From assembly GCA_039621445.1 (NCBI GenBank), contig CP154954.1, forward strand, positions 37,371,703-37,435,702: a DNA stretch of 64,000 bases, written 5' to 3'. The stretch is from Euglena gracilis (Eukaryota). Below the pieces are notes generated by a model. It was not told the DNA's origin. It saw only the letters and a list, made by a program, of their open reading frames with translations, and did no database searches. The stretch's first letter is position 1. Every line of letters starts with the position of its first letter. This document shows, piece by piece, positions 6,401 to 50,840 of the stretch. The position numbers and the translations under genes are program-made.

Positions 6401-9400
6401 TTTGGCAAAAATGTTGGCCATCCTGGGCTAGTTTGAGCCAATAAGTGCAAGCACATATGGCAATGAAGCATTTCGGGTCATTTGTGTAATTTAGGACACT
6501 TTTTCCGCCACCTCTGGTCAGTCATTCTGGGCCAATTAAGGCTGGTTTCAGGGCTTTTGAAACTTAATGTTCAGGGTTCTGTTATTCCGCCTCGGAGTTG
6601 AATGATCCCCCCACCCCACTTGGAATCTCTCTATCCTTGACAACCCCCCCCCACAAAACCTCCCTCTTCCCCAAGACGAACCATCAAACCTCGACTGGTG
6701 ACCCCCCAGAGCGAAACAGAAGCATGAAGAACTTAATGAGAAATGAAAAATGATCCACCAAAAAACCACTTCTCCATAGCAACAACAGGGAGGTTCAGGC
6801 TTTTGCTTAAGGTCCTGGTAGCCAGTCCTGGGTAGCTATTCTATTAGCCACTAGGAAAGGCCATCCGTTCTCATTATTTGACCCTCCCTGGTCCAGGGGG
6901 GGGGGTCCCCAGACTGGAAAATTTTTCCTCTGGCGCTGCGCGCCGAGGTGGTAATGGGGTTCTAAAAATGTCTTTTAGGGCGATTCTGTTCCCAAAAAAA
7001 ACCCAAAAAATGTCAAAAAATGGGCGTGCGTGCGTGCGCGCGCGTGTGTGTGTGCGTGCACGCGCAAACTGTGTTGTTACAGAATGCTAACCCCCCCCCC
7101 AAATAATACCCCCCCGGGGTATTATTTTTTTGCCCGAAGTCCCGGCCCGAGGGGGGTATTATTTGGGGGGGTATTATTTTCCAAAAATTTTCGAAATTTT
7201 TTGAAGTTCCGTAGGAGCCAAAATAAACCCCCCCCAAATAATACCCCCCCCAAATAATACCCCCCCCAAATAATACCCCCCCCCTTGGGGTCCGACTTCG
7301 GCCGCCGAAATAATACCCCCCCCCCTGGTTTCGGGCCGAAGGCCCGGATTTTTGACCTGAAAATGTAGGTAAAAATCACAATTTCTGACAACAAATTATG
7401 GAAAAAATGGATTTTTCTGGCTCATCTGACCTCCAAAAATGGTAAATTTCACAAGAAGGTGCAAAAAATGACCCCAAAGGGCGGTTTTGGGTGCTATTTT
7501 GGGTTTTACGGGACTTCGGAAAATTTCGAAAATTTTGGAAAAATAATACCCCCCCCAAATAATACCCCCCCCCCTCGGGCCGGGACTTCGGGCGAAAAAA
7601 TAATACCCCGGGGGGGGGTATTATTTGGGGGGGGTTAGCACCAAAACCCCGCTTTGGGGTCATTTTTTTGTACTCTCTTATGAAATTTAGCCTTTTTTGG
7701 AGGTCAGATGATCCAGAAAAATCGAATTTGTTGTCAGAGATTGTAATTTTTACCTACATTTTCAGGTCAAAATCCGGGCCTTCGGCCCCAAACCGGGGGG
7801 GGGGGGTATTATTTTTTAGTCTTAAGTCCCGGTCCGAGGGGGGGGGTTATTTGGGGGGGGGGTATTATTTGGGGGGGGGTATATTTTGGGTTTAACTTGA
7901 TCATGTGTATCTTTTTGCATGTTTCATGCTGGACCTTTTTTGCATTTTATTCATTTTTGTCAATTGAGCTATAAGTGAATGTCACTTTTTTTTGTGCTTT
8001 ATTTCTTCCCTCTTGCTTTCCCCCCAGAAATGATTCTCAAATTATCTTTTCTTGTCCTTTCAAATTTTGTCTGTTCTGTCCAGCATCTTCCCTTCTTTTT
8101 GCTGGAGGGGGGTTCAAGGATTCGGGGTGGACATACATGGGTGGGGGATGACCAGTCAAGGTTACATGGCTTCTGCTCACAACCCCCTGGTCCAAATTCG
8201 GGGGCGCGAATGTTTTTTTTCTGGCCCCCAAAACATTCCAAAAATGCACACACATACGAACACACACACACACACATGCACGCACGCACATGCGCATGCA
8301 CACACATGCAAACATGTGTCAGCACACATGCACACACGCACACACGAAACACATGCACGAACATGTATGCACATGCACATGCACACACACATATGTGCAC
8401 ACACACCACTGCCCGCCTCTCTGCCGTCGCCCGGCTGCAGCACTCCACCATGGTTATCACTCCATTGAGGAACTCCCCCGTTGTCGACCGCACCGCCATT
8501 GCTGTCGCTGCCGCTGCCCCCCACCCCTGGCCAGGGCACCGGCGGCTGCCCAGGCCCGCCCGCTGGCACTGCCGCCACCGGCACGCCTCCCGCTGCCAGC
8601 AGCAGAGAGGGCCGGAGGGGGCGGGGTGGCCGCTGGGGGAAACGTTGGACCCCTCGCACCCAGGGACCACCACTGCCTCCCGCGAAAACTGCCCGCCCCT
8701 CCCTGGGCGCGGGTGCAGGCTGCGTCCCCAACGCCATGCCTGGCACACCTGTGGTGTCAGCAGCGGAAGAGAGGGGACGTGGCGATGCACGGTGAGGACC
8801 CAGAGGATGATTTCCCTCGTTTCTGGAGTTTGGCAAAATCAAAAACAAAAGGGGAAACAGTTTGGATAATTGCTTCAAAATAAGACCTCTATGTCCCTCC
8901 CCATTATTTGTTTGTTTCGCATCATTTTGGTCTGGGGTGCCTCCCCCAGCTGCAACGGCCCAAGAAGCCACACCTGTCGTCCCGGGCCATGGGCCACCGC
9001 CCATCACCGCCTCCACCTCCCCCTCCAGCACCGCCACCTCCCCCTCCTCCCCGTCGTCCTCCTCCTCCTCAGCCTCGGCCTCCTCCCTCTCCGCCTCGCC
9101 GGGGCCGGGCCTTACCCGGCCCCCCTGCCGCAGCCCCGCGCTGTGCGCCGGCAGGGGCGGCCCGTGGCGGCACGCCGTGAGGTTGGCCAGGCTGGGCCGG
9201 CTCCATGCATTTCTTTAAGCACCCAGGGGGGGGGGGTGTTGGGCTGGGGCTGGGAATTTGGGCTGGTGGCCGTCCCTCCCCCTTGGGAAGGGGGGGGGGC
9301 TGGACCATACAATTGCTTACCGCCCCCGGGGGGGGGGGGGAGGGGGGTCACTCCACTTTTTAAAAAACCAGTCAGTCACTCATTTTCAAAAAACCAGCCA

Positions 9401-12400
9401 GTCACTCCCCCCCCCGGGGGGGGGGGGGTCGGCCACTCAGAAAAACGGCCACTTTCCAGTCACTTTAGGCCCAAAAAATTTTTCCGGCGCCTTCGGTGCC
9501 GGGGTCACTCAAGCCACTTTTGCCCACTCCTGGCCGACCCCCCCCCGGGTCCGGGCCAAAAACCAGTCAGTCACTTTGAAAAAACCAGTCATCCACCCCC
9601 CGGGGGGGGGGGGGGGTTGGTCAGTGCTTAAGCAATTGTCTGGGCTGGACCCCGGATTTCCGACGCAAAGTGCCAGAAATTGGGGGGAGGGGATTTGAAA
9701 AAAAGCCCAAAAATTGCGCTGTTTTGAAAAAAAAATCGGCCAAAATATACGCCAAAAAATCCTCTTCTATTGCGGTTGGCGTCGGAAAAAAAATAATTTG
9801 ATCTGCTGGGGTCCCGAGCCGCAGGGGCGGTGCCCCGTTACTGGCACCATTTTTTTGACCTTCCCCCCTGCCCCGTTATTTGGGCACTACTTGCCATCAT
9901 CAAATGTTGGATCCGCCCCGATTTTTACTACTAAGGGACCCCCCCCCCCGGGGGATAACTGGTATGCCATACACACAGATATGCATGCATGTTTGTATAC
10001 ATATGTTCATGTATGTACTCGAGGCAGGCAAGAATTGTGGAATATTTTCGTCCTCACTAACCACCTGGACCAAAAAAACTGAGGGTGCCCCGTTATTGGA
10101 ACCATCTTTTTCGCCCCCCCCCCCCGCCCCGTTATTCGGGCACTGCCCACTCAAAGGGCACTGCCCCGTTATTTGGCCGTTATTTGGGGGCGGGTTACCG
10201 CAAAAATGGAATCCTGCCAAGGAGGTCACCTGGAGGAGGCTCCGCAGAGGCTCTGGGCTCCACCAAACCAGACTCCGGGGAGGCTCCCCAGAGACCCAGG
10301 CAACCAATTTTGTTGACAGATTCAGCTGCACACAGGAGCTTGAGAAATTGGCCCCTACGGGGGGCACCAGCCACCCCAAAGAGCCGCCCAACTAAAGTTA
10401 ATGCGCACGGAGGGACCCTGCTCGGCGCCTTCAGCGCCTCGCTCGGGTCCCCCCATGTTTTTAATCCTCGGTGGGCGGCTCTTTGGGTTTGCTGAGCACC
10501 CTGTAGTGGCCAGTCTTACAAAGCTGAGCGGGACAAGCTCAACTGTTTGCAGGAGAATCCTAACCCTAGACCTACTCCTTCAAATAACCTCAAAATTCCT
10601 TTTATGTGATCGTTGTTTACAGTTTGGTGAGGTGATGACTGAGTTGGTTACTTGGAGGAGGCTCCGGGGAGGCTCCCAACCAAAAGTGAGGATTCCAAAT
10701 TTTTGGGGCCCCCGGAAGGGGGTGGTCAGGATCTGCCCCCCGGGGTCTGACCCTCTGCTCAAAACCAACCATCACTCAATTATCCGGCTGGACAATTACC
10801 CAAAAATGGAATAAGCATCTGACAACCCTGAAAAGTGCCCCCCTCCCCAAAAAGCCATTTTTGGTCCGTTTCAAAACGTCGAAAATTTTTGGTTCTTTGC
10901 AACGAAAATTCCTCCCCAAAAAACCACTTTTTCGAAGGAAAAAAAACGGGTTCGTTGCAACGAAAATTTTCGGTGGACCCAGCAAAGAGGGGCCAGCTGG
11001 GTTAGCAACAACCCCCCTCCCCTCCGGGAGCAGCTGGGCTGGGCCGAAATCGGGGCTGGCTGCAGCAGCCCCCCCCACCCCCGGGGGGTCTGCAAACCCC
11101 TAAAGTGATGCATGGCCGGCTCCGCACCACGATGACGTCGTTGTCCGGGGGGACCTCCTCTGGCAGTCGCCCGGACGGCGTGGGCGTCCACTCTGCCGGC
11201 CCTGGCGCCCGCTCCCCCGCCGCCCTCCGGGGCCCTGGGGCAGAGACCAGGCGGTTCATTAAGACGGAAGGTCTTTGGACTGCCTTTGTTTGCTCACCAC
11301 TTGCCCAGGGTCAGTGGAACTGAAGTCACTGGAAAAGCCTGATGGGTCTAAACAGTAAACCCAAAAAATACGGTCAATGACATGAGTTACAAGGCGGGTA
11401 TTGGAGAATGAAATTCAACTGTGACAACAAGCTGCAAAACAAACAGAGAAGAATGTCAGGCTTCTTATTTACCAACCCTGGGGGGGAGGAGGGTGCCTTG
11501 TGCTTCGAGGTGCCTGTCCCACAGCAGGCACCCTCCCCCAAGGGGGGGCGGGTCAGTTTCTGCCACCAGTGCCTGCGGGCCCAGGCAAATTTCCCTTGAA
11601 AATGGACATTTTCAAGACTCGGTGCCTTTAGTGCCGGGGATGTGCTGTAGCACTGCCCACACCAAAACCCGACCCCCTGGGGGTCGGAAATGTCCTACCC
11701 ACCTGCCTGCCATAGCACCCAGCCCCCCCCGGGGGGGGGGGGGAGGGTGAAAACGAAGCCTGGAAGATAAAGAAAAACACAAAAAAGAAAACAGAAACAA
11801 TAGAATCAGAACGTCGAAGAAAGCACTCAGGGAGGGGAAATTGATACCAGAGGCCTTCAAAAAAAATGCGGGAAAATTGCGGAAAAATTGATATCAGGAA
11901 TGTACACATTTCTTCTGGAGGAGGCAAAGAAAAAATTTACAATTTTTTTCATTTTGCAACATTAGCGTATATTTTGAGCCGTGGTTCACACGTTTTAAAA
12001 CAAAAAAGCCCCAAAAACATGACTTTTGGAACGTAATCCAAAAAACATGATTTTGGGAACATACCGATTCCAAAAATATGGATTTTGCTGGGCAAAAAAA
12101 AACAACGAAAATGGCGAAAAAAGATAAAAAATTTGGTCTCAGCGAAAATCTGCTCTAGAATGAGGAAATTTTTCTGAGCCGAAATCCAAATAAACCCCAA
12201 AAACCACACAAAAACGCACAAATTCTGCCCAAATTAGCAAAATTTAGCAAAATTTTTTTTGCAAAAAAAAACTGCAAGAGAATAGCAAAAATTGCATTCC
12301 CTGGCGAACCATTCACAGAATGGCCAAAACTCACTTCAGCTTCCATTCAGACTCATGCAGAAAAAATGTGGAAAGGGGGAAAAAACTGCGGGAAAATTGC

Positions 12401-15400
12401 AGAATATTGCAGAAAATTAAGGAAAACTGCGGAAATTGTGAAAAAATTGCGAATATCAATTCCCCCCTGAAATATTACAGCACACACAAGCACACACACA
12501 CACACACACAGACAGACAACACACAAGCACACACACCACTCCCAGCCGGCCCCACAAGCGCACTGCTGTCAGCTGCCGCCCCCACACTGCCCTCCATGTC
12601 CCTCTGGTGAGCAGCTCCGCCGCCTTCTGCTCCGCCACCACCGTTATCGGCGCTGCCACCGCTGCCGACCCCCGGCACCACACCAGCCCCCGGCCGCTGC
12701 GACAGCGGTTGCCCGGCTCCACCGCCTGGCGGCGCTGCAGCCGGTTCCCAGCCCGCCTCCTCCCGCCGCTGACCGCAGGGAGGGCTGGGGGGGGGGGGGC
12801 TGGAGTGCAGAGTGCAGTGGTGGCAGAGGCCTCGCCGTGTGGCCAGGCGTTTGCCGTGGCAACCACAATGGGGCACTAGATGGTGTGGTGGGCTGTGTCC
12901 TTCCCATTGCACACACCCCAGTGAAGGTGGCCAAACCCAGGGGCAGCCATGCAAATTTGCCCCTCCCTTCTGTTACAGCAGTCTTATAGCTCGATGTATT
13001 TCAGGAAAAGTTCATGAAAAAGAACTGTTTCATTCACAGCTTCTCGTCACTTCAGGAATTAGGAATGGAAGCTCTTGCACGAACGGCGGCATCATTCATC
13101 GCACCACAACCAGGGTTTTTTTTAAGACCGGGGGGAGGGGGGGTCCCCCCGGGGGGGTCCCGGAGGACCCACAAAAAATGGATAAAAATCGCGAAAAATG
13201 CTAAAAAAAACACTTTTTCGGCGCCGAAAAGTATATCCCACCCCCCTCCGGGGGCAACCCCCCCGGGGGGGGGGGGCTCTGCTGGACCCGGGGTCCACGA
13301 CTAAAAAAAACCCCTGACCACAACACCATGGCGTTGTTTAACCCTGCTGGGGGGGGGCACAGCTGGGAGGCTAAATTTCTGAGCTACCTGGAAAAAGCTG
13401 TTGGCTGACCCCCCCAATCAGGGCACAAGGCGGAAACTGCTCGCACCGGGTCAACAAAGGATTTTTGTGACAATTACAATGCATGACTTCCAGAACCAGG
13501 GGGGGGGAAATTATGCGGTCTGGCAGGCGGGGGAAAAATGCGGAAATTATGCGGAAAAATGCGGAAAAATGCGGAAATTATGCGGAAATTATGCGGAAAA
13601 AAAATGCGGAAAATATGCGGAAAAATGCGGAAAATGCGGAAAACATGCCGAAATTCTGTGGAGTCCCAGGTCACATGGAGAGGATAGATATATTTCTACC
13701 TCACAATATGCAGGGTCCCGATGCTATTTGATTCCCATCGCTGATGCCCAAGCTTGCCAGAAGTCACCAAAATGCAATGGAAAAACAAAGCACAAATTAT
13801 GTATAAAACAGAGAGATGAAAAGACGAGCACTTGTGCTCCAACATATTGGGGAAACAATGAACCTTGTAGTTGACCTGAATCCGTCCCATTGCACACACC
13901 CCAAGTGAAGGTGCCCAAACCCAGGGGCAGCCATGGAAATTATGCGGAAAATGTGGAAATTATGCTAAAAAATGCAGTAATTATGCGGAAAAATGCGGAA
14001 AATGCGGAAAAAAAAAATGCGGAAAAATGCGGAAAAAAAATGCGGAAAATGTGGAAAAATGCGGTTCAAATGCGGAAAAATGCGGAAAAAATGCGGAAAA
14101 TTTACAAAAAATGCGGAAAAAAAATGCGGAAATGCTAAAAAAAAATGCGGAAAATATGCGGAAAAATGCGGAAAAATGCGGAATAATGCGGAATAATGCG
14201 GAAATGCGGAAAAATGCGGAATAATGCGGAATAATGCGGACCGCATAATTTCCCCCCCCCTGCCAGAACCCAAATAATGCAGTCAGGATGTGCAAACTTC
14301 CTTGAAAAGCAGCCTGACAAAAAACCTCTTGAAAACATAAGAACACCCCTCTCAGAGCAAAACAGAGCTAAATGATTGTGTGTGCCTGATGCCGGCTGCA
14401 ATTTTTGCTGCGGGAGAGTGGGAGTTTTGCCTTCCCTCTGCTGGGAGTTCTCTTCACTCCTGATATGTCAAAAGCCTTAATTTCAGATTGAGTAATTGCT
14501 GTTAGCTGAGGACCCAAAAACGGCCAGAATTATCAACTAAAATATAAAACCTTTCTGTTTGCCACTCATAATGTGTTCGAACCAAAATTGACGCTGTTTG
14601 CCAAAAGAAAAAGGGTGTAGACAATCAAATAAAAAAAATACACCACCCTTTGAAAAAAACCACCACCCGTTGTCATTTAAATGAAAATTTTCATACTTTC
14701 CACTGTGCTTTTTATTCCAGATAATCCAGAATATTCTGGATATTCCAGAAATTTCTATTCTGGTTTATTCCGGTTTAATCAGGACTGGAATATTGCCCAT
14801 GTTCAGGGGTCAAAAATGGTTTCAAATGCGCATGACGACATCATTCTTTCTGTTGCGGGGTGTCACAGAGTCTTTAGAATGGGGAGTAATGATGGACAAC
14901 TTGCCACCGAACTCAACTGGTAATTTGTGGCAATCCTCCTGTGTTCTTTACTGCCCTCATCAACCACCAGCAGCAGAGTTCTCTAACAGCCCATTTCTAC
15001 CTGGTTTATTTGTTTGCATGTAAATTTCCACTGCATTTTGTGACCAACTTCAAGAACCTCCACAACATACCACAAGGATTCAGAAAGCAAGCAAAGGGGT
15101 TACCTGTTACCTGTTACCCCATCTCCAGAACACCACCTGCCACTGGCAGGTGTCGCACAGGAAAAAGGAGGTGCAGGGACCGGGGCTTTCGTGCATTTTT
15201 GGTAAATTTCTCAATTTGGGGAGGTCAGTCCCGGGGGTTTCACAACTCAGCAACGTGCTCCGGAGGGTCAAAACATCAAACTTGCACAATGCCCCCCAGG
15301 GTGGTGTGCCACCACTGAAAAGTTGCAAGCATCAACAAATGGAGGGATATGGCATATCACAACCAGCTCAAAAACCTGGACCCCAACCATCAAAAACAAA

Positions 15401-18400
15401 AGGTTCAAAATCTGCAGATCTATGTTGCTGCACCGCCGAAGTTGATGCCCTCCAGAGCGCTGCCCACCCCAAAGGCCTCCTCCAGGCCCTCCCTGGGCGT
15501 CGGTGCAAGCTGTGATTCCCACGCCGTGACCGGTGTGCCTGTGACGGTGGGCCCGCCGGCGGAAGACAACCATTAAACCCCAAATAAACCCCAAGGGAGA
15601 AAGATAAAGAAGAGGGAGGTTGAGGTGTTTTGCAAATTTCTGTCACCGCATTCTTTTGGGTTGATTTGTGGCGGATCTCTTCCTTCTGTCTTTTGGTGCA
15701 TCACACGCATGAAACGACGTGCTGAATGTCAACTTCTAATCCACCCCACTTTTTCACCCCCTTCTCAAAGCTAACACCAGCAAAGCTAACACCAGACCTA
15801 CATCCCTGCGTTGTCCCTCCATTTAAGTGCACGGGGTGCGTACATTATTGGACCGAAGTTTTGGACCCTCAGGGGCGTGACACTTATTTGGACACTGCGC
15901 ACCATTTGGGCACAGTGCACTTTAATGGAGGGTGTAAACTCCCCCCCCCCCAAATATAAAGCTCGCCCAAATAGAAAACCCCCCAGGGATGAGGTTTGCC
16001 ACCCGAAACAAAGCACCCCCCACCAATGCAAATCCCGCCGATCGTGAAATTCAGGAAAAGGAAGAAAAATCTTGGGTGAATGCAACAATTTTTCACCAGA
16101 AATTCTCCAGTTTGGACAAAAGCTGCACATTTTGGGGGAAAATGGGGATACACAACGAAAATTCGTTAAAAATTGGCATTTGATCACAGTTGAAGGCCGC
16201 CACAGTATGTATTGGCCACCGAGAAAAGTTTGATTTCCCCCCCAAATATAAAGCTCCTTCCTGGGGGTGTTGAAAGCCCACCCAAATACAAAGCTGGGGG
16301 TGCTTTCTTTTTAAAACGGGGTTAAACTGCGGGGGCACTTAGAGTTCTGGCATATCACCTCAGGCTGACAGAAGCACAGGATCCACACCTGCCACCCCGG
16401 GCCATGGGCCACCGACCATCACCACCTCCCCCACCCCCTCCAGCACCGCCACCTCCCCCTCCTCCCCGTCGTCCTCCTCCTCCTCAGCCTCGGCCTCCTC
16501 CCTCTCCGCCTCGCCGGGGCCGGGCCTTACCCGGCCCCCCTGCCGCACCCCCGCGCTGTGCGCCGGCAGGGGCGGCCCGTGGCGGCTCGCCGTGAGGTTG
16601 GCCAGGCTGGGCCGGCTCCATCCATCTCTTTAAGCACCCGGGGGTCCCAGTCGTGAAAGCCGAGCCCCACAAGTTGCATTTTGTCACGATAACGGAAAGC
16701 CCACGCTTGTCAGCTTCACGGTGAGAGTTCTGATGGTATGTATGCAGTTGCAATGCAGATCCCATCAAATGGAGGTTCGGTACATCTGACGAAGGCCCTC
16801 AGCCACCATTGGGGGGGTACCCATTTTGCTGTGTCAGCGGGCTAGGGCTAGAAATTTTCCCTAAGCCTGGGGGGAGGGCTGCAAATGTGCAGCCCTGGCT
16901 GTATCTTTGCAGGGCCGGGATGGGCAGGGTGTTAAGGGAGCAGGGAGGGGTGGTGGGACGGGACCCCCTTCTCCCTGAACAAAAATACTTTCGGCACAAA
17001 ATGCGGAAAATTTTGGGGGGAGTTTTTTAAATAAAAGCCCAAAAAAGCGAGGATTTGCACGTTTTTAGAAAAAAGCAGCCAAAATGCCAACAAAAAAAAT
17101 TATCTTCTCAAGCGAAAAAGGTTGGAGATTAGTATCATTGGTTCTGGGGTCCCCGTCTGGACCCTCCTCCGGGGTGTCTTACCTCCCCCCCCCCCGCACA
17201 AAACCAATTCGCTCAATTCGCTTAATACTGCGGCTGGGTCAAATGGGATAACCACCCCCGGGGGGTCTGCAAACCCCTAAAGTGATGCATGGCCGGCTCC
17301 GCACCACGATGACGTCGTCGCAGGCGCCGCTGCCCTGGGGCAGGTGTTTCAGTAAGGTGGAAGGTCTGGACTGCCTTTGTTTGCTCACCACTTGCCCAGG
17401 GTCAGTGGAACTGAAGTCACTGGAAAAGCCTGATGGGTCTAAACAGTAAACCCAAAAAATACGGTCAATGACATGAGTTACAAGGCGGGTGTTGAATCTC
17501 ACTTGCAAAAAAATAATGCAACATGCTACAGAACAAAAAAGATGAAAAAAAACAGAAACAGCAACAGCAAGAGAATCAGAACGACAACGCAAAAAAAAAC
17601 CTCCACGCATGCACACACACACACACACACACACACATCCATACACAAGCACACACACCACTCCCAGCCGTCCCTACCAACGCACTGCTGTCAGCTGCCA
17701 CCCCCACGCTGCCCTCCGTGTCCCTCTGGTGAGCAGCTCCGCCGCCCTCCGCGTCTATGGGTGCGTCCTCTGGCCGCCGCCCCAGTTTGGGCGTCCACTC
17801 CGCCGGCCCCGGCAGGCGTTCCCCCGCCAGCTGGTGGGGCTCTGGGGCGGGAAAAGCCAGCGTGGCAACGATGCGAACCGAGAGAAGGGAACTCCCACAG
17901 ACGCCTGTCAAAATAACTACCTTTGACAGCGTTCAACGTTCCAAGGTTTGTGTGCGAATGAAAATACCCCACTCCCAAACCCCATTCCGGAAGCGGCGTT
18001 TGAGACGGACCTGTAAAGCTGTGGGGAAGGGACATACAACCCTGCGGGCTTCGGGTTGTGGCGGGCCCCCAGCACCAAACAGGGGGACTTAACAGTGGCC
18101 ATTGTCATGGGAAATTTACCTGTTTGATCCTGTCCAGAACCCAAAACCGACCTCGGGGAGTTTGCATCCCCCTCCCCAGGGTGATGAATGCACCCCCCCC
18201 CCCCCCCCCCCGGGAGGTCTGGATCTAGGCGCATTGGGTGCCAGCCCAGGCAGGTGGGATACAGTTGGCGTTGGCAACCCGTTAAAATATAAAATTTATT
18301 CAGCCATATAACACATCCAAAATGCAAATATTTTTCAGAGCAAACCTCAGAAAATAGCCCACAAAGAGATCCCCCAAAAGCAAACTTCACCAAAATTGGA

Positions 18401-21400
18401 AAAAAGGAGGAAAAGCTGCAAAAAAGGGCGGCTGGATGGTAATAGATTTCGCTTTCGGGGGTACAAAGATGGGCCAAAAACGGGCCAAAATGGGTCAAAA
18501 AATGGACGAAAATGGGTCGGAAAAAAGCTGTCCAGGACATTTTGGGGGGTAAAAAAAATGGATTTTTTGAATAGTTGGCAATTTTTTGGACACTTTTTTG
18601 CGATTTCGTTGTTTTTTTTTTGGTTCTCAGTTTGACCCCAGGTCGGGTCCAGCTCCAGCCTGGGACCCTTATGGGGGGAGGGTGGGGGGGGGCGGGGCCA
18701 TCAGCCTTTTTCCAGCCAGCACAATTTTTCCAGCCTCTGAGCTGGACGGGGGGGGTCCTTGAGCAATGCCCTGGTCCGCCCCTTTCTTACCCATTTTTTT
18801 TGAAAATTCCAGAGAATTTTGCAATTACACTTGTTTTCTGCTTTTCTGCTTACACTTGTTTGTGCTTTTCAAGGCTGGGGCTTCTTGAAATGATTGTTTT
18901 ATTTTTTTCCATGGAGGTTACAACAGGGATGGCACCCAGACATCCCAGGATGGAAAAAGGCTGCTGGCTGGAAAAAAGTTGCTGGCTGACTGGACCCCCC
19001 TGGGGCAGGGCAGAATGGGAAGGCCTGGTGGGGGGGGACCCCCCCCCCCCGCCCACCACAGCATTTTCACTGATTTCGGGAAAACGGGGATTTTGGCCGG
19101 AAAATTTTTGAAAATTTTCTTTGAAAAAGAATCCAAAACAAATATTTTTCAGGACAATCAAAAAAAAGAGATCAAAAAGCAAACTTCACCAAAATTGGAA
19201 AAAGGAGGAAAAGCTGCAAAAAAGGGCGGAAAATAGATTTCGCTTCGGATGGGCCAGGGCCAAAATGGGTTGGGGGGGTCGGAAAAAATTTTTGGGGGGG
19301 TAAAAAAAAATGCCGCAGTTGGGTTCGTGGGGGGGGGGGGGCCATCTTTTTCCAGAAAATTCCCCTTGGGGCCCTGGGCTTTTTTTTGAAAATTCCTCAT
19401 TGCTTCTTGTACCTGGGGGCAACAGGGATGGCACCCAGACATCCCAGGATGGAAAAAGGCTGCTGGCTGGACAGTGCCTGGTGCTGCCATTTTGGGGGGA
19501 ATGAAAACCAACCCAAAATACATGGTTTTTTGATGGAAACCACATTTTTTCACAAAAAAACAAAATTTCTTCAGGAGGTCCAAAAATTGTCCAAAAATTC
19601 TTTGCTTTGGGGGGGGGGAACCCACCACCCTGGCTGTTTGGCCGATTCCCGTTCTGCCCTGCCCTGGGGGGTGGGGTCGAAATTTCTTAAACAACGCTGT
19701 GTGGAAAAAAGTGCAAAAAGCTGCGTGGGAAAAAAAAATCGACAAACCACCAGAAAAGGATTTTCGCAGTTTGGAACAGTGCAACGAACTAAGAACCCTC
19801 AAATTGGAAAGTTTGGGTCCTGTTCAATAAAAAGTGCCATGTCTCTTCGTAACGGTGAAGCAAGGAGAGGCACATGTTAGCAGGTGCTGATGGATGACTA
19901 CACTGCTGCAGGGCTCCCCCTGACCCCGTCGCCGAGGCCCCTCAACACAGGTGCGCAAGCACGCACACCGCTCCCAGCCAACACCGCCAACTCTCCGCCC
20001 TCGCCCGGCTGCCACGCTTCCCCCTGGCAGTCGATCCTGCGAGCAACTCCGCCCCCCTCCGCTCCGCCGCTGCCACCACTGCCACCGCTGCCGTCCCTGC
20101 CGCCGCCGCCACTGCCAACACCACCACCACTTCCACCACTGCCGCCACTGCCGCTACTGCTGCCGCCGACACTGCCACCACTGCCACCACTGCCACCACC
20201 ACTGCCCCCCACCCCAGCGCTGCCCCCCAGCTGGTAAACCGGCGGCCGCCCTGCCCCACCGGCTGCCAACCCCGGCACGTCCTGCGCCGCCGGCTGCAAG
20301 GAGAACTGAGGGACGATGACTGTGGTGGGGGTGGGCCAAAAAAATGCGTTCAAATGACTTTGCCCACTCCCTTCACAATGTGAAAAACATGCACACCGTG
20401 AAAAATGATGCGAATTTCTGGGAAATCAGGAGCGTGCAAGCACAAAAAAACACCATTGTTTTGTTGTCCGATAGAAGATTTCAATTTAATAAAACAATTC
20501 GTAAAAATTAGCATTTGCACCAAATTATTTTGGGAAATTGATCCATCAACAGTTTTGTCTGCTGCCTAAATGACTTTTCTGGGGAAGCAAAAAGATCGGT
20601 CAACTAACGTTGCAGAGGGCAAAAGGAGGAGTGTTTGCGAATTGGTGGCTGATGACCCATCCTGCCGGCCCGACGTTTCCCTTGGCAGACAGGCGGAGGG
20701 GTTTGTTGAGGGAGCATGAAGGAGTGCCTGCGTGCTCCAACCACTGCATTCGGATGGCACCGCAGCAACCTCCATGCCAGTCACCCCCCCCCCTGCAGCA
20801 GAAGAGTTCCAGCTCCTCCCTGGGCGTGGCGGGACGCTCAGCCCACGCTGTGCCTGGCACACCTGCGATGGCGGGCCAAACGACAGGTATTGCACTTGGG
20901 TTGCTTGGGCCACCGCTATGCCAAGGAAGGATGGAAGGGTGCTTGCACCTCTCCTACAATGATATGTGGCAGGTGAGCACCCCAGAGTGACGCATGGCCA
21001 CATTTACTGATAGCTTGGGACGGGCCTCTCGATGCCCCTGTTTGACACCCCCAAAGGAGAGAATCGATTGAAATTACAATCAACAAGAGGTACGATGGCA
21101 AGGTCAGCCAACCACATTTTCAACCCCCTTGTGGTTATGCGATCTTGTTTGGGGGTTGAATGTGGTGAGGTAGGACTTGTGTGGGGGGTTTACCCACTAA
21201 AATTATATCCAGGATTTCCCAAAAACTGGGAAAATTTCGCCACTGTTATTTTCTTGCACAACCATTGCAGATGCATTTTTTTTGTACTGAGAGGAATGTT
21301 TTTGACACACTGGTGCTGATCATGCCACCACCACCCAATGCCAGGATGCTCTTTTGTTGGAAACTCGCCCTGTGGGCACCTTTGCTGGGAAAGTTCTGCA

Positions 21401-24400
21401 GCGTTTAGCTTGCCAAAAAAAAAGCATTTTGACAGCATCAACATATTCAGAAATTAAAGAAAAAATGCTTTCTGCCCCCCTCCCCCCCCCCGGGTCCCAC
21501 TCCATCCTGGCACTCAATCAAACAACGAGATGACCCTGGCATTCATGATATTTGCGATGTATTGGAATGCTGCTGTCCGCAATTTGGGGTGAAAATGACA
21601 TGGGGTGAAAATGACATGGAGTGAAAATGACATGGGGTGAAAATGACACAACATTGTTTGTTCGCTTGTTTACACAAAATGTCAATTCTATACTTAATAT
21701 ATCTAAAAAAAATACAGAAAACGTGTTTTCGCAAAATTTCAAGAAAAGGCATTGGCATTGTATTTGTCCCAGCCATCGCCAAAACCCAACTTTTGCACAC
21801 CTCCTCCTTGCTCACCCATGGGTGCCATGCCGCCCTCCATGCCCCTCCACTGAGCAACGTCTTCCTGCTCCGCCCCGTCGCTGCCATAGAGGCTGCCACC
21901 GCCGCCACTCCCCGGCCCCACACCGCCACTGCCGCCACTGCCGCGGCCGCTGCCCCCCACCCCCGGCCGGTGTACCGGCGGCCGCCCCGCCCCGCCCACC
22001 GGTGTGGCCGCCGCCACCACTCCCGGCACACCCCCCGCCGACGACCGCAGGGAGGGCTGGGAAAGGCGGTGGGGGGGGGGGGCGCTGGCGGCCGACCCCT
22101 CCTGGTGTGATGCGGTGGGACACTTCCCGCAGCACCCACCCCTGGAGACACCTGAGGGGTTGCGTGGGGGTCGCTCCCCCACCCACCCCCACCCCCTTCC
22201 CACCTTCGAAGGTTGTCAGCTCCTCCCTGGGCGTCTGTGTCGGCTGCATCTCCCATGGGGTGCCTGGCGTGCCTGCAGTGATGGACGAGCCGCTCAAATT
22301 GGGGCGTGGTGGCGCACGGGGATGCCCAAATGGCCATGGCATACAGCGCAAACATACTGATTGGAGCAAACAATTTTCAACTGGTCACCAGCGGTCACTT
22401 TGGTGGAGGGGACTTAAGCCAGAAACCAGTCAGTTGCACCTCCTGGAGGGGGGGTTGGCCAGCGACCAAATGATTGTATGGATAGCAGACAGAAATGATC
22501 GGAAACCGGCTAATTGTTCTCATTTTTGTGAATTGTTCTGGGCTGTGGCGCAGGACGGCAATTTCAATGACCAGTTGAAAGGTTGGGGACAAGCCGTCTG
22601 TCCCTCCCCCCCTGGCTCTATGGGAGTCCTGGGGCGGGAACTGCGTTTTACCTGGTTACCTGGGGTCGAACCGGTCCGGAAAATTCGAAATTTGACTCAA
22701 AATTTGAGCAAGTTTCCTCATTTCCGGCACAAATTAAAATATGCCAAGGGAGGGGTCGTGAAGCTGCAAAATCTGCTGGCTGGTTGGACTCCGCTCCAGG
22801 GCTCCAGGGCTGGCACTGGACACAGCCCACAACGGCACAGCCACACCTGCCGCGCCGGGCCACAGGCCACCGACCGTCACCGTCTCAACCACACCCTCCA
22901 GTACCGCCACCTCCCCCTCCTCCCCATCGTCCTCCTCCTCCTCGGCCTCGGCCTCCTCCCTCTCCGCCTCGCCGGGGCCGGGCCTTACCCGGCCCCCCTG
23001 CCGCACCCCCGCGCTGTGCGCCGGCAGGGGTGGTCCGTGGCGGCTCGCCGTGAGGTTGGCCAGGCTGGGCCGGCTCCGCACCACGATGACGTCGTCGTCC
23101 GGGGGCACCTCCTCCGGCAGCCGCCCGGACGGCGTGGGCGTCCACTCCGCCGGCCCCGGCGCCCGCTCCCCCGCCGCCCTCCGGGGCCCTGGGGCGGCAA
23201 CGATGCGAACTGCGAGAAAGGCGCCAAGCTTTGTCAGGGCGGTGCCACATCTGCAAGAGGGGTAGCTGTTTGCCTGCTCTCTGGGGGTTACCTCTCCCCT
23301 CCCCCACCGCGGCCAGGCGACAGCTTTTAAACCCTTCGCCGTGACCATTGCACCAATTTTGCGTGTTTTGCGTGTTTTGGTTTCCTTGTTTTGGTCAAAT
23401 TGCGCCTTGTAAAAATCACTTTGTGCGCAGGTCATTTTTGCCCCTATTTTCACATTTTCTGGGTCGTGCACGACCCGTCCAGCGTTGGACAAGGTCGTAT
23501 GTTATCGAATCAGACAAAAGAGGCAGGAGAGAGCGGTGCCCTCAATAAAATGGTAACGGGTGATTGGATCCAAGCAATGTTGTTCGAAAAATGGGAAATG
23601 AACTCTTTTATTTTGTGTTTGAGAAATTACAAAAAACAATTGTCAGAGCAGGTCAGAGAAAATTTTTACAAATTTTTTTTACAAAAGAGAACACAAAAAA
23701 AGGGGGGGAAAGATGCCAAAAGAACAAAAAAAATCCATCAAGGAAGCAATGGACTGGCTGGTGCAGGCGAGGCAAACCGGTTGCGGCAGGAACGGCGGCG
23801 GTGCCAGAGCCGGCCAGCGGCCCAGCAGCCCCAGGGGCGGGCCAAGCGGCGGCCCCTGCTTCGCCGGGATGGGCCGGGCCCTCGGGGTGGGGCACTCCTG
23901 TGAGGCGGGGGGGGGGCACGCCACACGTTGCACGGCAGCCCCAAGTCCCCCGGTGCAGTTGACCCTTCCAAACGTTGCGGATCACCTTTTATCCCCTTGG
24001 GCAGGCGAACTGTCCCAAACAGCAGGGGTCCGAAGAGGCACAATGCCTGAGGACATTGGCCGGAAATGCAAATGTTTCTTCTCGCTTCCTGCGATGACTA
24101 CGCCTGGCATTGGCTACTGAGTTTTACGACTACCATTTAATCTTATTGTGTTGCATACTAAATAAATTATATGTTTGTATATGTATACATATGGCAGGTG
24201 TACCTTTGGATACCCCCCTGGGGGGTATTAAAGTGGGTTGGCCACCACAAATACCCTGGGGCTGGTGAAGATGAAGGGTTGGGGTCAGGCCAGCCTGGGT
24301 TCGGCCGCATGAGCAACACGCATCCTCCCTGGGCCGGGCTGCGTGATTCCCAAAGGCGGTAGATCAACAGGGAAAGCAAGATAAAGACCTCGAACCATAC

Positions 24401-27400
24401 AATTTTTTACCGACCCCCAGGGGGGGGAGGGGGGTCACTCCACTTTTCAAAAAACCAATCAGTCACTTTTTTCGGGAAACCAGTCAGTCACTACCCCCCG
24501 GGGGGGGGGGGGGTCGGCCACTCTGGAATCCAAAGGAAATTTTACCAAAAACATGCAAAAAAGGCCAAAAAAATTTCCGGTGCCTTCGGCGCCAGGTCAC
24601 TTTAGTGGTTTTTTACTGACCCCCCCCCCGGGGGGGAGGGGGTCCGGGCCAAAAACCAGTCACTTTGAAAAAAACCAGTCACCCACCCCCGGGGGGGGGG
24701 GAGGTCGGCCATTGCTTAAGCTGACTTGACTGCCTCGAACAGTCGGCCCCACAAAGGGGCCCCCACTCGGCCCTCCCTTCCTTTGGGAGACAAAAGTGTG
24801 AGTGCCGGGATTTGCGGCAGCGGGCAGCTGGGCCGGCATTTTCGGCCGCACGCAGGCAGGAGGCTAGGGAGTGGGGCCGAACCCACCAGGCCGGCCAGTC
24901 CTTACCCTCGCCCTGCGTCTTCACTAACCCCAGGGTACCCGTGGCCAACCAAGTGTCCACTTCGATACCCCCCAGGGGGGAGGGAGTATCCAAAACTAAT
25001 CTGCGTTTTGAAAAATAAAGGGACCTGAATAACAAGGTGTTGGCGGTTTGGCATGCATATTAAATTTCAGGAAATTGCCACGCTTCGCTGACAAAAAAGT
25101 GGTTTAATTAAAGACTCAAGCCGCTCCTCTCCCCACACACCGCTTCCGGCCAGCGCAGTCCACACTCCGCCCTCACCTGCCTGCGGCACGCCACCCTCCG
25201 CTTCACCCTGAGCAGCTTCACCCCCGTCCGTCCCGTCGCTGTCGTGGATGCTGCCCCCGCCGCCGCCACTGCCACTGCCGCTTCCGCGGCCGCCGCTGCC
25301 CCCCACCCCTGGCCGGTGTACCGGTGGCCGCCCTGCCAGGCCGCCCGCTGGCGGCACTCCAACCGCCCCCGGTACGCCCCCGGCCGCCGTCGCCCACAGA
25401 GAGGGCTGGAGGGTAGTGTTGAACCCCGACGGTGGCGGTCCTCAATGCCTCGCCACCTGGCCAGGCATGCTCTGGCCACGTCAACCCCCGACTGGTGGAA
25501 TGCAGTCATTGGGTGTTTGGGGGCACCGTGCCGCTGTGCTGGTGCAGTGGCAACGGTTGTGCTGTCAGCCCTTTCCCTCCCCTTCCTGCCCCTTGCCTCC
25601 CCGCCTCAGCCACTGACCGTCCAGACTGGTAAAGGAGGCCAGCGGCAATGCACAGGCCGACCAACTCACCACGCAACACCCTACCACGCCCCCTCTGCCG
25701 CCGGCAGATCCCCAGCCTCTCCCTGGGCGTTGGTGCATCCGTCGCTCTCGATGCCCCACCCAGCGCACCTGCAAATGGAGCGGAAGTGAAACCGGCTCAA
25801 GTAGACTTGGAATCGCCAACGGAAAGCGTGAAGCGGGTGACAAAGCGGGGCTGAGTTTGTGCGTCTGATTCCAAAGTCTAATGAATGAAATGTCAGAAGT
25901 GGGCCGGAGGGAACCAGCAGCCCAGGGCCGGTGTGGGCGGCGAACACACCTTCGCCCTCCCACGGCTGCGGCACTCCGCCGCGGGGGTCGCCCCACTGCC
26001 CAGGTAGGCCTCCCTCCGCTCCGGCGCCGCCGTTGTCGGCGCTGCCGCTGCCGCCGCTGCCACCGCCCGGCGCCAAACCACCCCCGCCGCCGGGGCTGCC
26101 CCCGGGGCCGCCCACCGCTGGCCGAGGCACCGGTGGTCGCCCTGCTCCGCCAGCCACTGGTGCTGCGGCCGCTCTTGGAACCCCCGCCGCTGACGGCAGA
26201 GAGGGCTGTGGCGGGGGGGGGGGGGGCTGACATCTTCCCAAGGCAAAACTCCTTCCCCACAGCTGGCGCCACCGGCTTCTCCCTGGCCGCCGACACATCT
26301 GGCATCCTCCCGGCTGTGCCTGGCTCACCTGTGATGGGGGGCAAGAACTTCTGGCAAAAGTACCACCGATTACGCAATCGCCCCCCCCCCCAACGGGAGC
26401 ATGGGCTAATTTTCCTGGGGGGATCACAGGGGAGAGGGTCCCACCCGCCCACCCGCCCACCATCCACTCCCCTCTGGGTCATCAACCCATGCCAAACCTG
26501 ACGTGGAAAACAAACGATTTGAGATGTTCACCTGTCATGTCAAATGCCTGATGTTTGTTGAGGAATTGCGCTAAAGGACAGATTTTTTGGGGACGTGCGA
26601 TTTTGGGCTGATCACAAAAATACCCTTCAGTGTACTATTGTCTCAATGACCTCGGGAGCCGACGATTCCTCAATGGGCTCCAGGACCCATTTTGGGGGTC
26701 TTTTTTAGGCCCAAAATAATGTTTCAGTGCTCTGTGTCGAAAAAAATGGAGGAAACCCCTCCACACAAGGGAACCCAGCCCGACCCTTCAGAGGTGTGGG
26801 GGGGGGGGTCACACTGGGTTCGAACCAGGTGTTTGTTAGAGAAATAACTTCCTGGAAGCATGGGTTCAGTTGTGGTCACGAGCAAAGCATGAAAGGAAAC
26901 CACCTCAACTAAGCAGTATTCGCTGCCACGCGGCACAAAAAGCATTAACCCCCCCAAATAACCTGGCGGGGTCCTTGCTCCTGGCGGGGACTGAATAACC
27001 TGGCGGGGGGAGGGGCAAAAAAGATGGTTCCAGTAACTTGGCACCCCCCCTTTTAGGCAAAATTCCTTTACGGCGCTGAAAAAAAGGCCCAAATAACCTG
27101 GCGGGGGGGGGGGGGGCAGGGCAAAAAGTGGCTTCCAAAAACCTGGCACCCCGCCAGGTTGTTTGGGGGGGGGGTTACGAAGTCCTCTGGACCACACAAA
27201 ATTAAGGGACACAAAAGTTTATCTCAAATCTTCAAATGGCAAACACGTCAAGCAATGGTTTTGAGACATGCCCTATAGCGCAACTCTCTAGGCAGCTGGG
27301 AAATATGAGTCCCCTACAACACAAGTTCCACAGAGAATATGGAGGGAAGTCAAACACCAGCCTTAAACTATGAGGTCCCCCAGTCCTTGAAAGTGAATGA

Positions 27401-30400
27401 AAGGGGGGTCAGACGCCCTACCGTTTAACAATAGGCCCAAAGCCAATTTGCCTGTGTTCTTTAAGGTGACCCGGACAATAGTAGAGCATGCGTGCTCCAG
27501 GTATAGGTCAGAGTTTGGGGATATTTCAGAGGGTCAGGGTTGGGATTGAGGCCTGTTATGCCTTATTTAGGCCCAATTTTAAGCCAGTTTTCGGCCTAAC
27601 CCTGGCTTAACCCTGACCCTGATTCTCTTCAGAACCGCAACCCTATCCCTCCCCTGAGAATAATAGAAAACACCAAAAAAAAATGCCGACAAAACCCCAA
27701 TCAACTTGCGCCGTGGTTCATTTAATGGGGGGCAATAGTTTAACACTGCCAGTTAAACCTTCTCCACCAACTCTGAGGAAAGCATGGAATACACTTGGCA
27801 CAGAAAATGAGCCCACTGGCACACTTTTCTGAGTGCCCCTGTATTATTTTAACAGATTTTTAACATCAAACAGAGTGTCCATTATGCGGTATCATGTCAT
27901 TTTTGATGTCATCTGTCCTTTTTCCTCTGAATCTTGTCAAAAAAAACCTGGCGAGGCGAAAAATAATAATATGGTTGAAAAAGCACCTTAAACAGCACAT
28001 ATGGCATAAAGTGGAGCCCTTGGGTATGTGCGGGAGGTGGGGGGGTGGGGGCGTGTGTGGAGTGTGGGGGGGCTGTGTGGGGGGGGGTGCTGTGGGGTAT
28101 CCACGTTTTGCCATAACTCTTCTTCATTCCGCAACTATCAGAAGCCTTGGACCGTGTTCACAGAGTCCATTTCCAGACCCCAAATTTCCCTCAAGAAAAC
28201 TTGATTCTCGAGGGAAATTGAGTAAACCCACCTCCTAAACAAGGCAGTGGCCGAATAACTTGGCGGGGGAGGGGCTAAAAAGATGGTGCCAAGCTACCCC
28301 TTTTAAGACAAAATACCTTTGCGACGCTGGAAAAAAAAAGCCCAAATAACCTGGGCAGGGCCAAAAATTGGTTCCAACAACCTGGCACCCCGCCAGGTTA
28401 TTTGGGGGAGGGGTTTACACTAAAAACAAAATCCAAAATCAAAAACCTTGCAAAATGTCAAAATCACCACAAGCTGAGACGAAACGGCCCACACAGCCAC
28501 ACCTACCGCCCTGGGCCACGGGCCACCGCCCATCACCGCCTCAACCTCCCCCTCCAGCACCGCCACCTCCCCCTCCTCCCCGTCGTCCTCCTCCTCCTCG
28601 GCCTCGGCCTCCTCCCTCTCCGCCTCGCCGGGGCCGGGCCTTACCCGGCCCCCCTGCCGCACCCCCGCGCTGTGCGCCGGCAGGGGCGGCCCGTGGCGGC
28701 ACGCCGTGAGGTTGGCCAGGCTGGGCCGGCTCCGCACCACGATGACGTCGTCGTCCGGGGGCACCTCCTCCGGCAGTCGCCCGGACGGCGTGGGCGTCCA
28801 CTCCGCCGGCCCCGGCGCCCGCTCCCCCGCCGCCCTCCGGGGCCCTGGAATATGAGCATTCGGCCGCCGGCAAAGCCATAGGAATACACACATTGCCTCC
28901 TTCACATCGGGTGTCATTGATTTAAGCGGAACGACATTTCTCAAGCGGCTCAAACGCCATTTGTACCGCTTGAGAAAAGTTGCGTCCACATGGGTCCTTC
29001 CATGTGTATCTCACTTGAAAAAAGGCAATGACTTTGTGCTAATGAAAGAGAAGGAGAATAAGCTGTTCTGACTTGCCAGGAATCCATGGCAGAATTTATT
29101 GATTGCCCGACCCCGCAGGATGTGGACAACAGTTGAACATACACGTGGATCAAACTCCTCTACAAGAAGCGACCATATGCAAAGCCAAAACCAAAAAAAG
29201 TTCTGACCATGGCGTGGGAACAATGAAGAGAAAAGGCGAAAATGGTACCAAATAGCAATCGCTCCAATTGTTCCCGCAACAGGCAGCCATATTCAGAGCA
29301 AACCGGTTGTTGAGGGAACTGCGAGACCTGCCGGTGGCCCATCGTCCTCAGGTCTGCCGGGAACGTTGCTGTTGCTGTTGCTGCCTATTGTCCCTGTGCA
29401 CAGGAGTGGTCGGTAGGATACCACATGAAAGAAAGAAAACAAATCCATCTGTTTGGATTTGGACAGGGATGAAACATTTGTTCTGACAAATTGGTGACGA
29501 AAGAAAGTGGCAAAGTTATTTAACTTAGGAGTTAAATTGAAGTTGAACTTTCCCAAAATATTCAGGTCCAAAGTTCAGCACACCCAAAAATCCAAGTTTG
29601 AGCAAAGTTGATGAATTGCATTGAATTCCTGCTCTGATTAGGTCAACCATCCAATTTTTGCCAACCCCCTGGGGGGAAGGGGGATCACTTCCACCCTTCC
29701 AAAGCGCAGGCGGTCACTTTTCTCGGAAAAACAGTCATTCACTACTTCCGGGAGTGGGGGGGTCGGCCACTCTAGAATTGCCGGATCATCGCCGGATCAC
29801 TTTGGTGGTTTTTCCCGACCCCCGGGGGAGGGGGTTTGGGCCAAAAGCCAGTCAGTCAAACTGAGAAAAAAAATCAGTCACCCACCAGGGGTGGCAAATA
29901 ATGGATGCCTCTGGGTCTAACACCTGGGTGAGGTTGGTCGAAAATAAATGCAGATCAGACAGAGGACATAAATGTAGATCAGACAAATAGGGTAGGCAAA
30001 AAATCACCCATTTTTTCAGGACCATTCTTCAAAAAACCACGTATTTTTATAAGAAAAATTATTTTCTCTTCCTGTGGATAGGCAAATTATTCCATTTCCT
30101 CTGTGCTCTTTTGGGGAAACCATCCAAATTTCCTGGCGTTTTGCCTTCAATATTTGGTGTTCGACTTTTGGTTACCTCAATGATTTTATAACAAAGAAAG
30201 AAGGATGAAAACGGGCTGGGGAGGTGGCAGTTTACTTTTTTTGGAACCCTTGGTGCGAAAAACTACACTTTGACCCCCCTCTGAATAGAAGCCCCCCCCC
30301 CGAATAGTGTCCCCCCCCGAATAGAACCCCCCGGGATTCTGACCATTGGTCCGAATAGAAGCCCTCCCCCTTTACACACAGTGTACAAAAACGAAGGGGG

Positions 30401-50633: not shown

Positions 50634-50716
50634 GGTCAGATGGTCAAGTGGTCAAAGACGCCAGCTTCAAACGCTGGTCTCCTCCAGGGGCGTGGGCTCA
50701 AATCCCACTCTGATCA
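50634..50716 (+). tRNA. tRNA-Leu(CAA)-like sequence, probably a pseudogene or SINE head
   Basis: Acceptor stem GGTCAGA/TCTGATC, D-arm, anticodon arm CCAGC-TTCAAAC-GCTGG, long variable arm, T-arm GTGGG-CTCAAAT-CCCAC (C instead of T54). Confidence 0.7.
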
Positions 50717-50760: not shown

Positions 50761-50840
50761 TGATCAGAGTGGAATTTGAACCCACGCCCCCGGAGACCAG
50801 CATTTGAAGCTGGCGTCTTTGACCACCTGACCATCTGACC
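50761..50840 (-). tRNA. tRNA-Leu(CAA)-like sequence, inverted copy
   Basis: Same cloverleaf with a GGTTCAAAT T-loop/B-box and a downstream TTTT. Confidence 0.75.

Follow-up and report, generated by a model that had tools for sequence, protein, structure and literature searches.

How an intron without GT-AG borders can come to lie inside a coding exon is the question raised by a locus of Euglena gracilis (assembly GCA_039621445.1, contig CP154954.1, positions 37,371,703 to 37,435,702), here called the window, with a length of 64,000 nucleotides (nt). The window holds several copies of one exon, exon B, two of them split at the same nucleotide by a long insert and the others uninterrupted at that site. 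A transposon insertion, with the empty site retained in paralogous exons, is well supported as the origin of the split and is regarded as very probable. The insert may further be a snapshot of intron birth, since its ends have the geometry of the nonconventional introns of euglenids.

A repeated coding exon

Exon B has five copies in the window, all on the minus strand, and its intact form is 342 nt long. The copies and their parts are as follows:

22847-23188, minus strand: c3, intact copy of exon B, with an empty insertion site
28503-28844, minus strand: c4, intact copy of exon B, with an empty insertion site
about 38742-39076, minus strand: c5, B-type exon, diverged and empty at the insertion site, exon 8 of EG_transcript_15627
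11118-11234, minus strand: 5' part of c1, 117 nt, with a C-rich tract and a CAG acceptor before it
8974-9198, minus strand: 3' part of c1, 225 nt, followed by an AG/GTGTGG donor
17295-17334, minus strand: truncated 5' part of c2, 40 nt, lacking 77 nt present in the other copies
16389-16613, minus strand: 3' part of c2, 225 nt
17753-17899, minus strand: B', a degenerate remnant of the 5' part of exon B upstream of c2, with a flank like that of c3

The earlier description of c3 and c4 as intact 342-nt exon copies is confirmed; the two are 95.8% identical over 357 nt, and c5 has 74-76% nucleotide identity to them and 63% overall in protein. In the well-aligned core of c5 the indels measure 6, 3, 6, 6 and 3 nt, all multiples of three, and the peptide core DDDVIVVRSRPS...ANLTA.RHG is retained. 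The alignment of c1-c4 has 29 variable columns, including 13 in the first 290 nt; ten of these 13 are synonymous third codon positions in one minus-strand frame, and the remaining three correspond to Asp/Asn, Cys/Ser and Val/Leu. The acceptors of c1-c4 consist of a C-rich tract followed by CAG/GG, and their donors read AG/GTGTGG, the same donor as in c5. GT-AG introns of E. gracilis have been described with a GTGTG donor consensus and with a C-rich tract and CAG at the acceptor (PMC11170887), and the match of the c1-c4 borders to both supports B as a real coding exon, which is how the block is taken here from its sequence. The exon is in phase 1-1, so that copies can be gained or skipped with the frame unchanged.

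Beyond the exon block the copies are essentially unalignable, with the exception of two upstream pieces common to c1 and c2 (11248-11403 and 17341-17494, 94.9% identity; 12483-12630 and 17604-17752, 89.3% identity). A translated self-comparison of the window gave no repeated coding block except B; the other exon families of the original prediction were therefore not recovered.

The insert and its target duplication

The copies c1 and c2 are split within the Arg codon of ...VVRS-R-PS..., and the insert, taken as the distance from repeat to repeat, has 1919 nt in c1 and 681 nt in c2. On the plus strand it is flanked by the direct repeat ggccggctcc (9195-9204 and 11114-11123 in c1; 16610-16619 and 17291-17300 in c2), present as a single copy in the intact c3 and c4. 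An element with terminal inverted repeats (TIRs) can be delimited between 8-bp copies of the sequence GCCGGCTC, which is single in c3, c4 and c5 and reads GAGCCGGC on the coding strand (no strand is assigned to the elements):

9204-11114: Bi1, TIR element in c1, 1911 nt, CATGCAT...ATGCATG, with the 8-bp duplication GCCGGCTC at 9196-9203 and 11115-11122
16619-17291: Bi2, TIR element in c2, CATGCAT...ATGCATG, with the 8-bp duplication GCCGGCTC at 16611-16618 and 17292-17299

In both copies 12 of the 14 terminal bases match, and the inverted repeat extends to about 30 nt if indels are allowed. One end is identical between Bi1 and Bi2 over 39 nt (100%) and the other differs at three positions in 25 nt; inside, an internal core of 170 nt aligns at just 64% identity (E = 4e-9) and the rest differs. 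Two repeats are nested in Bi1, R1a (9306-9642) and R2 (9852-10176), the latter recurring at 50239-50572, where it is 85% identical, in inverted orientation, to 9852-10153 of Bi1. A Pfam search of four open reading frames (ORFs) inside Bi1 gave no domain.

The insert is the derived state, because c3, c4 and the outgroup c5 are all uninterrupted at the site. It is best read, from its termini and flanking repeats, as a likely non-autonomous TIR element with an 8-bp duplication. The opposite history, an ancestral intron precisely lost from c3, c4 and c5, would likewise have left a single copy of the repeat, but it needs two or three independent events, one of them in the 74-76%-identical c5, and the 8-bp duplication together with the TIRs is the signature of an insertion; such a loss is scarcely credible here.

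Further elements of this kind occur in the window. A generic search for CA...TG-tipped elements between perfect direct repeats of 8 bp, with at least 11 of 14 terminal positions matching as a TIR, returned five elements (Bi1, Bi2, R1a, G1 and G3), against none in each of 30 first-order Markov simulations. Inspection and a relaxed run added R1b and H1, with 8-bp duplications, and G2 and G4, with 7-bp repeats. The elements besides the insert are:

9306-9642: R1a, 337 nt, nested in Bi1, 8-bp duplication GGCTGGAC, TIR 13/14
24396-24732: R1b, second R1 copy, 8-bp duplication CCTCGAAC, which is not extendable to 10 bp
13111-13316: G1, CAGGG...CCCTG tips, 8-bp duplication ACCACAAC
13497-14262: G2, CAGGG...CCCTG tips, TIR 14/14, 7-bp flanking repeat
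19006-19661: G3, CAGGG...CCCTG tips, 8-bp duplication CCCTGGGG
54664-54932: G4, CAGGG...CCCTG tips, 7-bp flanking repeat
55371-56899: H1, 1529 nt, termini CATGGATGGG...CCCATCCCTG, 8-bp duplication CCTGGGCC

The window has at least four such elements with the CA...TG architecture of the insert, and six counting two with 7-bp repeats. With the repeat length varied, a scan gave 17 candidates at 8 bp, where 0.5 were expected, and none at 9 bp; the candidates at 10 bp were the exon inserts, R1a and artefacts of a palindromic array. A duplication of 10 bp, as originally proposed for the exon insert, was rejected: in R1b, G1, G3 and H1 the repeat is not extendable, and these elements set its length at 8 bp. 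The 10-bp repeat around the exon insert and R1a arises because the first C and the last G of the element happen to equal the bases outside the 8-bp core, and R1a shows the same G+8+C pattern as the exon insert. With this correction to 8 bp and two coincidental bases, the earlier account of the insertion holds, both in the interruption of c1 and c2 at the same codon by an insert whose flanking 10-bp repeat is single in the intact copies, and in a TIR element entering an exon with an internal empty site, to which the TIRs, the duplication and the three uninterrupted copies all testify.

The tips of H1 are given as CATGGATGGG and CAGGGATGGGG, and its two long ORFs had no Pfam family. One end of H1 begins CAGGGATG, as do the ends of maize Ac/Ds. 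A Pfam search of eight ORFs of Bi1, H1 and G3 gave no family and no transposase domain. Palindromes of C-runs and G-runs (CCCCC...GGGGG) are found at 9226-9240, 9325-9345, 9408-9428, 9600-9618, 11708-11735 and elsewhere, and recur near the ends of R1-type elements or inside them, as well as in the two arms of the exon insert.

A search of the whole window with a 16-nt terminus pattern, allowing at most three mismatches, had five matches against 0.56 expected, four of them the insert ends and one an unrelated sequence at 20982. Within the window the termini were not found outside the two inserts, both at the same site, and a metagenome scan with the insert terminus gave 0 matches. The lack of a second copy of the termini elsewhere in the window or in the metagenome scan would suit another origin, in which a nonconventional intron was gained during double-strand-break repair with filler DNA and the repeat is the fill-in of a staggered break, as proposed for a recently gained gapC intron of E. 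agilis with 8-nt direct repeats (PMC4770533). This origin is very unlikely given the TIR of 12/14 positions, the sibling elements in 64 kb with the same length of repeat and the same tips, and the resemblance of one insert arm to the R1 termini. In that arm 14 of 20 anchored positions match, a value equalled or beaten by 27 of the 9296 CA-starting 20-mers of the window (0.29%); the other arm reaches at most 10/20, not above chance.

Geometry of a nonconventional intron

The most conserved positions of nonconventional introns are +4 to +6 and -8 to -6, with CA/TG at +4/+5 and -7/-6 as the most conserved pairs (PMC3935182). These positions pair essentially always in 55 validated introns, in which CAG and CTG occur in 33, so that 22 differ (PMC3935182). 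The direct repeat around the exon insert allows 11 excision registers, and in just one of them (k=6), in both copies, +4 to +6 (CAT) pairs with -8 to -6 (ATG). The introns predicted from this register are:

9199-11117, minus strand: predicted nonconventional intron in c1, 1919 nt, made of 3 nt of duplication, the element and 5 nt of duplication
16614-17294, minus strand: predicted nonconventional intron in c2, 681 nt, containing Bi2

As the paired register equals 3 nt, the element and 5 nt, it is dictated by the 8-bp model and not freely chosen. Its borders are GG...CC, and 0 of the 11 registers have GT-AG or GC-AG borders. It has C/G at both junctions, and the downstream exon opens with G and carries C as its third base, in agreement with PMC4770533. 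The insert also has CA/TG at +4/+5 and -7/-6. Its terminal helix consists of 8 bp, a 2-nt mismatch and 7 more bp; relative to c1, the helix of c2 has one pair lost and one gained. The duplex of the 30-nt ends has an energy of -23.4 kcal/mol in c1 and -20.9 kcal/mol in c2, against -13.1 +/- 3.2 and -15.0 +/- 3.4 for shuffles. In a terminal-pairing test (10+U7+10) the values were -10.6 kcal/mol (c1) and -6.5 kcal/mol (c2), for a published range of -10 to -2 kcal/mol in nonconventional introns (PMC11170887).

Several elements of the original prediction can be judged from these results. The single register with pairing terminal triplets was found as predicted (1 of 11), the inverted termini are corroborated by the matching terminal bases and by duplex energies below those of shuffles, and folding of the joined termini, named at the time as a check, gives a stable duplex. 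The pyrimidine/purine (Y/R) junctions at both ends are present, but they are not independent evidence: they amount to one fact, because the same repeat is cut at the same dinucleotide both times, and register k=0 is likewise Y/R at both ends. Excision in c1 would join 117 and 225 nt into 342 nt, in frame, as stated; in c2, with its 40-nt 5' part, it would give 265 nt. If the insert is retained, c1 meets a stop after 38 codons of insert.

The statement that no GT-AG pair restores the frame stands for exact restoration, which no GT-AG or GC-AG pair gives at the junction registers of either copy, but frame-preserving GC-AG options exist. The donors GCCATG and GCGGAG, combined with the acceptors ...GGAG, ...CCCAG and ...AAAG, keep the frame free of stops with a net change of +3, -6 or +6 nt in the exon, and could in principle be used by the conventional spliceosome as cryptic sites. 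These donors are weak, without the position-5 G described as the sole prominent characteristic of GC-AG introns in E. gracilis (PMC11170887), the acceptors have no C-rich tract, and the nearest GT donor lies 53 nt upstream or further. Conventional splicing of the insert is accordingly held to be highly improbable, and its removal from c1 as a nonconventional intron at 9199-11117 is, as a prediction from sequence, plausible and given a slight preference.

A transcript from the neighbouring B-type exon

A profile of c3, c4 and c5 searched against 1.84 billion representative proteins had one match, P0001, with 247 amino acids and E = 5.8e-14. By exact look-up it is the transcript-derived EukProt entry EP00667 Euglena gracilis, EG_transcript_15627. 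All of its residues (247/247) map exactly onto eight minus-strand segments of the window, from 42421 to 38937:

38937-42421, minus strand: eight exon segments of P0001, with seven introns, five of them GT-AG and two without a GT/GC-AG register

Residues 202-247 correspond to 39074-38937, the start of c5, and the protein ends within the conserved core of c5. The match confirms the acceptor and the phase-1 entry of c5, which are aligned with the predicted acceptors of c1-c4. The GT-AG introns have four GTGTG donors and one GTATG. The two others, at about 39779-39885 (107 nt) and about 39204-39387 (178 nt), have no GT/GC-AG among their translation-compatible registers. The former, intron 4, has a 7-bp helix from +4/-6 with AGG and CCT, and Y/R at both junctions. 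The intron at about 39204-39387 has an 8-bp terminal helix with unusual spacer lengths. Nonconventional splicing thus acts on a transcript containing a B-type exon, and the host is a euglenid with nonconventional splicing. The euglenid setting of the original prediction was therefore correct, as shown by the mapping of P0001 and its two introns without a GT/GC-AG register; for the view that c1-c4 are exons of one gene, a transcript link was found for c5 only.

Are the interrupted copies still exons?

It is somewhat favoured, from the sequence of the two copies, that c1 may still be used as an exon from which the insert is removed as a nonconventional intron, with c2 decaying. The rival explanation is that the transposon killed c1 and c2, which would now be skipped pseudo-exons whose similarity was kept by recency or by gene conversion. 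Skipping would be neutral for the frame, with an exon of 342 nt in phase 1-1.

Several results weigh against c1 and c2 as spliced exons, and some of them fit the pseudo-exon explanation directly. In the profile search of representative proteins, no protein with a c1-c4-type exon was found, P0001 with c5 being the sole match, so that such an exon is absent from the transcript-derived proteins of that library. The changes unique to c1, six in 342 nt, are at about the level of the neighbouring intron and not clearly different from the neutral rate, which is 5% in the intron flank shared by c1 and c2. The copy c2 is probably decaying, judging from its reading frame: its restored length is 265 nt and not 342, a phase-0 entry is needed to keep the family frame open, and a phase-1 entry runs into a stop. 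With its 77-nt exon deletion, incompatible with phase-1 entry, at least one insert-bearing copy is probably not maintained. In addition, the core of Bi1 and Bi2 is 64% identical, compared with 95% in the exon and the upstream flank; this discordance implies either gene conversion after an old insertion or two independent insertions by diverged relatives.

The remaining objection concerns the third pair of the terminal triplets. A knock-in mutagenesis study defined the code N3-CDG...CH'G-N5-6/R, with a 5' spacer intolerant in length and a need for an extended helix, and this code covers 61.2% of the annotated nonconventional introns of E. agilis (PMC12501133). In the same assay any single substitution in CAG or CTG abolished splicing, and the available text of that study has no description of compensated changes at the third pair (PMC12501133). 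In the insert this pair is T:A (+6 T, -8 A), which places CAT...ATG outside the CDG...CH'G code, with its need for G:C. The published pairing geometry, on which the original prediction relied, is matched at +4 to +6 and -8 to -6, but not in this mutagenesis-defined code.

The opposing evidence starts with c1 itself, both halves of which are free of indels and stops; of its six unique changes in 342 nt, four are synonymous and two non-synonymous, the 5' part holding all four synonymous ones and an Asp-to-Asn change, and the 3' part a Val-to-Leu change. In geometry the insert lacks none of the features of a nonconventional intron, and its ends are conserved (39 nt at 100%; 25 nt with three differences), in contrast to an interior with 64% identity or no alignment. 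CAG and CTG are likewise missing from 22 of the 55 validated introns. On balance, the reading of c1 and c2 as skipped pseudo-exons is considered rather unlikely.

As for the history of the two copies, a single insertion into the site is favoured over two independent ones, since c1 and c2 agree exactly in site, orientation and duplication. The remnant B' (17753-17899) abuts the block at 17604-17752 that c2 has in common with c1 (12483-12630), and this position suggests that the c2 unit is rearranged.

Other searches with the exon were negative. Word-index protein searches with the c4 exon (near lengths, longer, and longer at residues 1-72) gave nothing; they also missed P0001 and are therefore weak. 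A metagenome scan with the B-exon profile had 594 pattern matches, none of them confirmed, and a Pfam search of the c4 and c5 exon ORFs gave no family. Among sequencing runs listed for 22700-23400 there was no RNA run; 14 runs, tentatively classed as DNA, contained 0.64-0.83 of the words of this stretch.

A proposed route from transposon to intron

Here it is proposed that a non-autonomous DNA transposon with short imperfect TIRs (CATGCAT and ATGCATG) may have entered one copy of the tandemly repeated 342-nt exon, where it would have created the 8-bp target duplication (coding strand, GAGCCGGC). Duplication or conversion of the interrupted copy would later have given c1 and c2. In the pre-mRNA the tips of the element could pair, and the duplication would provide 3 nt upstream and 5 nt downstream of the helix. 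The transcript would in this way have a recognised geometry: N3, a paired triplet, then a second paired triplet, N5 and a purine. Excision of 9199-11117 would remove the element with one copy of the duplication and leave the exact exon.

A wider and more tentative proposal, to which somewhat less than even weight is given, is that a single type of transposon left its imprint as the code of nonconventional splicing in Euglena. The spacers of 3 and 5 nt would then be an 8-bp duplication divided in two, the tips of the inverted repeat would be what is conserved as CAG(G)...(C)CTG, and the Y/R rule at both junctions would be positions 5/6 of the duplication seen twice. Any exonic insertion of such an element would be born as an exactly excisable intron, and the exon insert would be a CAT...ATG-tipped relative caught beside empty sites. 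The tips of the G elements match the nonconventional consensus of E. gracilis, with CCAGG at +3 to +7 and CCTG at -9 to -6. When 3 and 5 nt of duplication are added to G1-G4, which are mutually unrelated, the full splicing code of 2025 is present in 7 of 8 orientations, by construction.

If true, the sum 3+5=8 would account for the rule of the spacers, for the 'fingerprint' CAG(G)/(C)CTG about which Milanowski et al. asked (PMC3935182), and for the 8-nt repeat of the gapC intron. If c1 is spliced as predicted, a concrete type of element would be tied to intron birth. The locus joins a filled site, three empty sites, a measurable duplication, sibling elements in 64 kb and a transcript-verified neighbour.

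Comparison with known systems

Nonconventional introns constitute about 72% of the introns of E. agilis, and their origin in Euglena was still called unclear in 2025 (PMC12501133). In the available descriptions (PMC3935182, PMC4770533, PMC12501133, PMC11170887) they are like the insert in their non-GT-AG borders, 3/5-nt spacers, helix from +4/-6, CA/TG at +4,+5/-7,-6, purine as the first base of the downstream exon and direct junction repeat, and a neighbouring transcript in the same species has them too. They are unlike it in the G:C third pair of their code, against T:A in the insert, whose excision is predicted.

Part of this picture is already published, namely the origin of these introns from MITEs (miniature transposable elements with inverted repeats), proposed in 2014, and a case of filled and empty strains with an 8-nt repeat, from 2016. 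The 2014 paper, which also cites maize Ds acting as an intron, stated that no transposable elements had been identified in euglenids (PMC3935182), and a 2024 review draws CAG and CTG as TIR and the junction repeats as similar to a target-site duplication (TSD) (PMC11282704). The insert shares the terminal inverted repeats and TSD-like junction repeats of this hypothesis. The MITE idea has so far been based on inverted repeats alone, and the available text of the two papers (PMC3935182, PMC11282704) names no element family, whereas here elements with 8-bp duplications adjoin the candidate intron. A literature search, with most subscription journals outside its coverage, found no named element family and nothing that explicitly relates the 3+5 spacers to a TSD of 8 bp.

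The 2016 case is gapC intron 4 of Euglena agilis ACOI 323, which is like the insert in its contrast of filled and empty sites and in its eight-nucleotide junction repeat (PMC4770533). There, strains were compared and splicing was documented; here, paralogous exons in one locus are compared and the intron is predicted. The gapC repeat was ascribed to break repair (PMC4770533), whereas the TIRs and sibling elements of the present locus point to transposition. The introners of Micromonas, Aureococcus and dinoflagellates resemble the proposal, according to the summary in PMC11282704, in that insertion of a DNA transposon makes the intron and the duplication gives splice-site sequence. They are spliceosomal, with GT-AG or near-canonical borders, and form large families of near-identical copies, in contrast to the candidate described here, which is nonconventional and has two copies at one site in the window.

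Among transposon superfamilies, hAT has as its hallmarks an 8-bp TSD and YARNG tips, according to PMC3014272. The 8-bp duplication is common to the insert and the G elements, and the CAGGG...CCCTG tips of the latter fit YARNG. An assignment of the insert to hAT was rejected, its tip CATGC failing two YARNG positions; no transposase was seen in the eight ORFs. The Merlin elements of E. gracilis also have 8-bp duplications, but with GG tips (PMC8101967) against the CA tips of the insert.

Other features of the window

The region 52208-53501 is densely packed with short palindromic units formed from ACTAGTCGGCCGAC and has large inverted copies at a spacing of about 1.1 kb; it was the source of many false positives in the scan for TSDs and TIRs. 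Another inverted repeat, at 7085-7890, has two arms of about 400 nt, 7085-7496 and 7495-7890, with 82-88% identity. An Rfam scan of the window found nothing except two tRNAs. These form a convergent tRNA-Leu(CAA) pair, 50634-50716 on the plus strand and 50761-50840 on the minus strand, 44 nt apart, which adjoins the R2 copy at 50239-50572.

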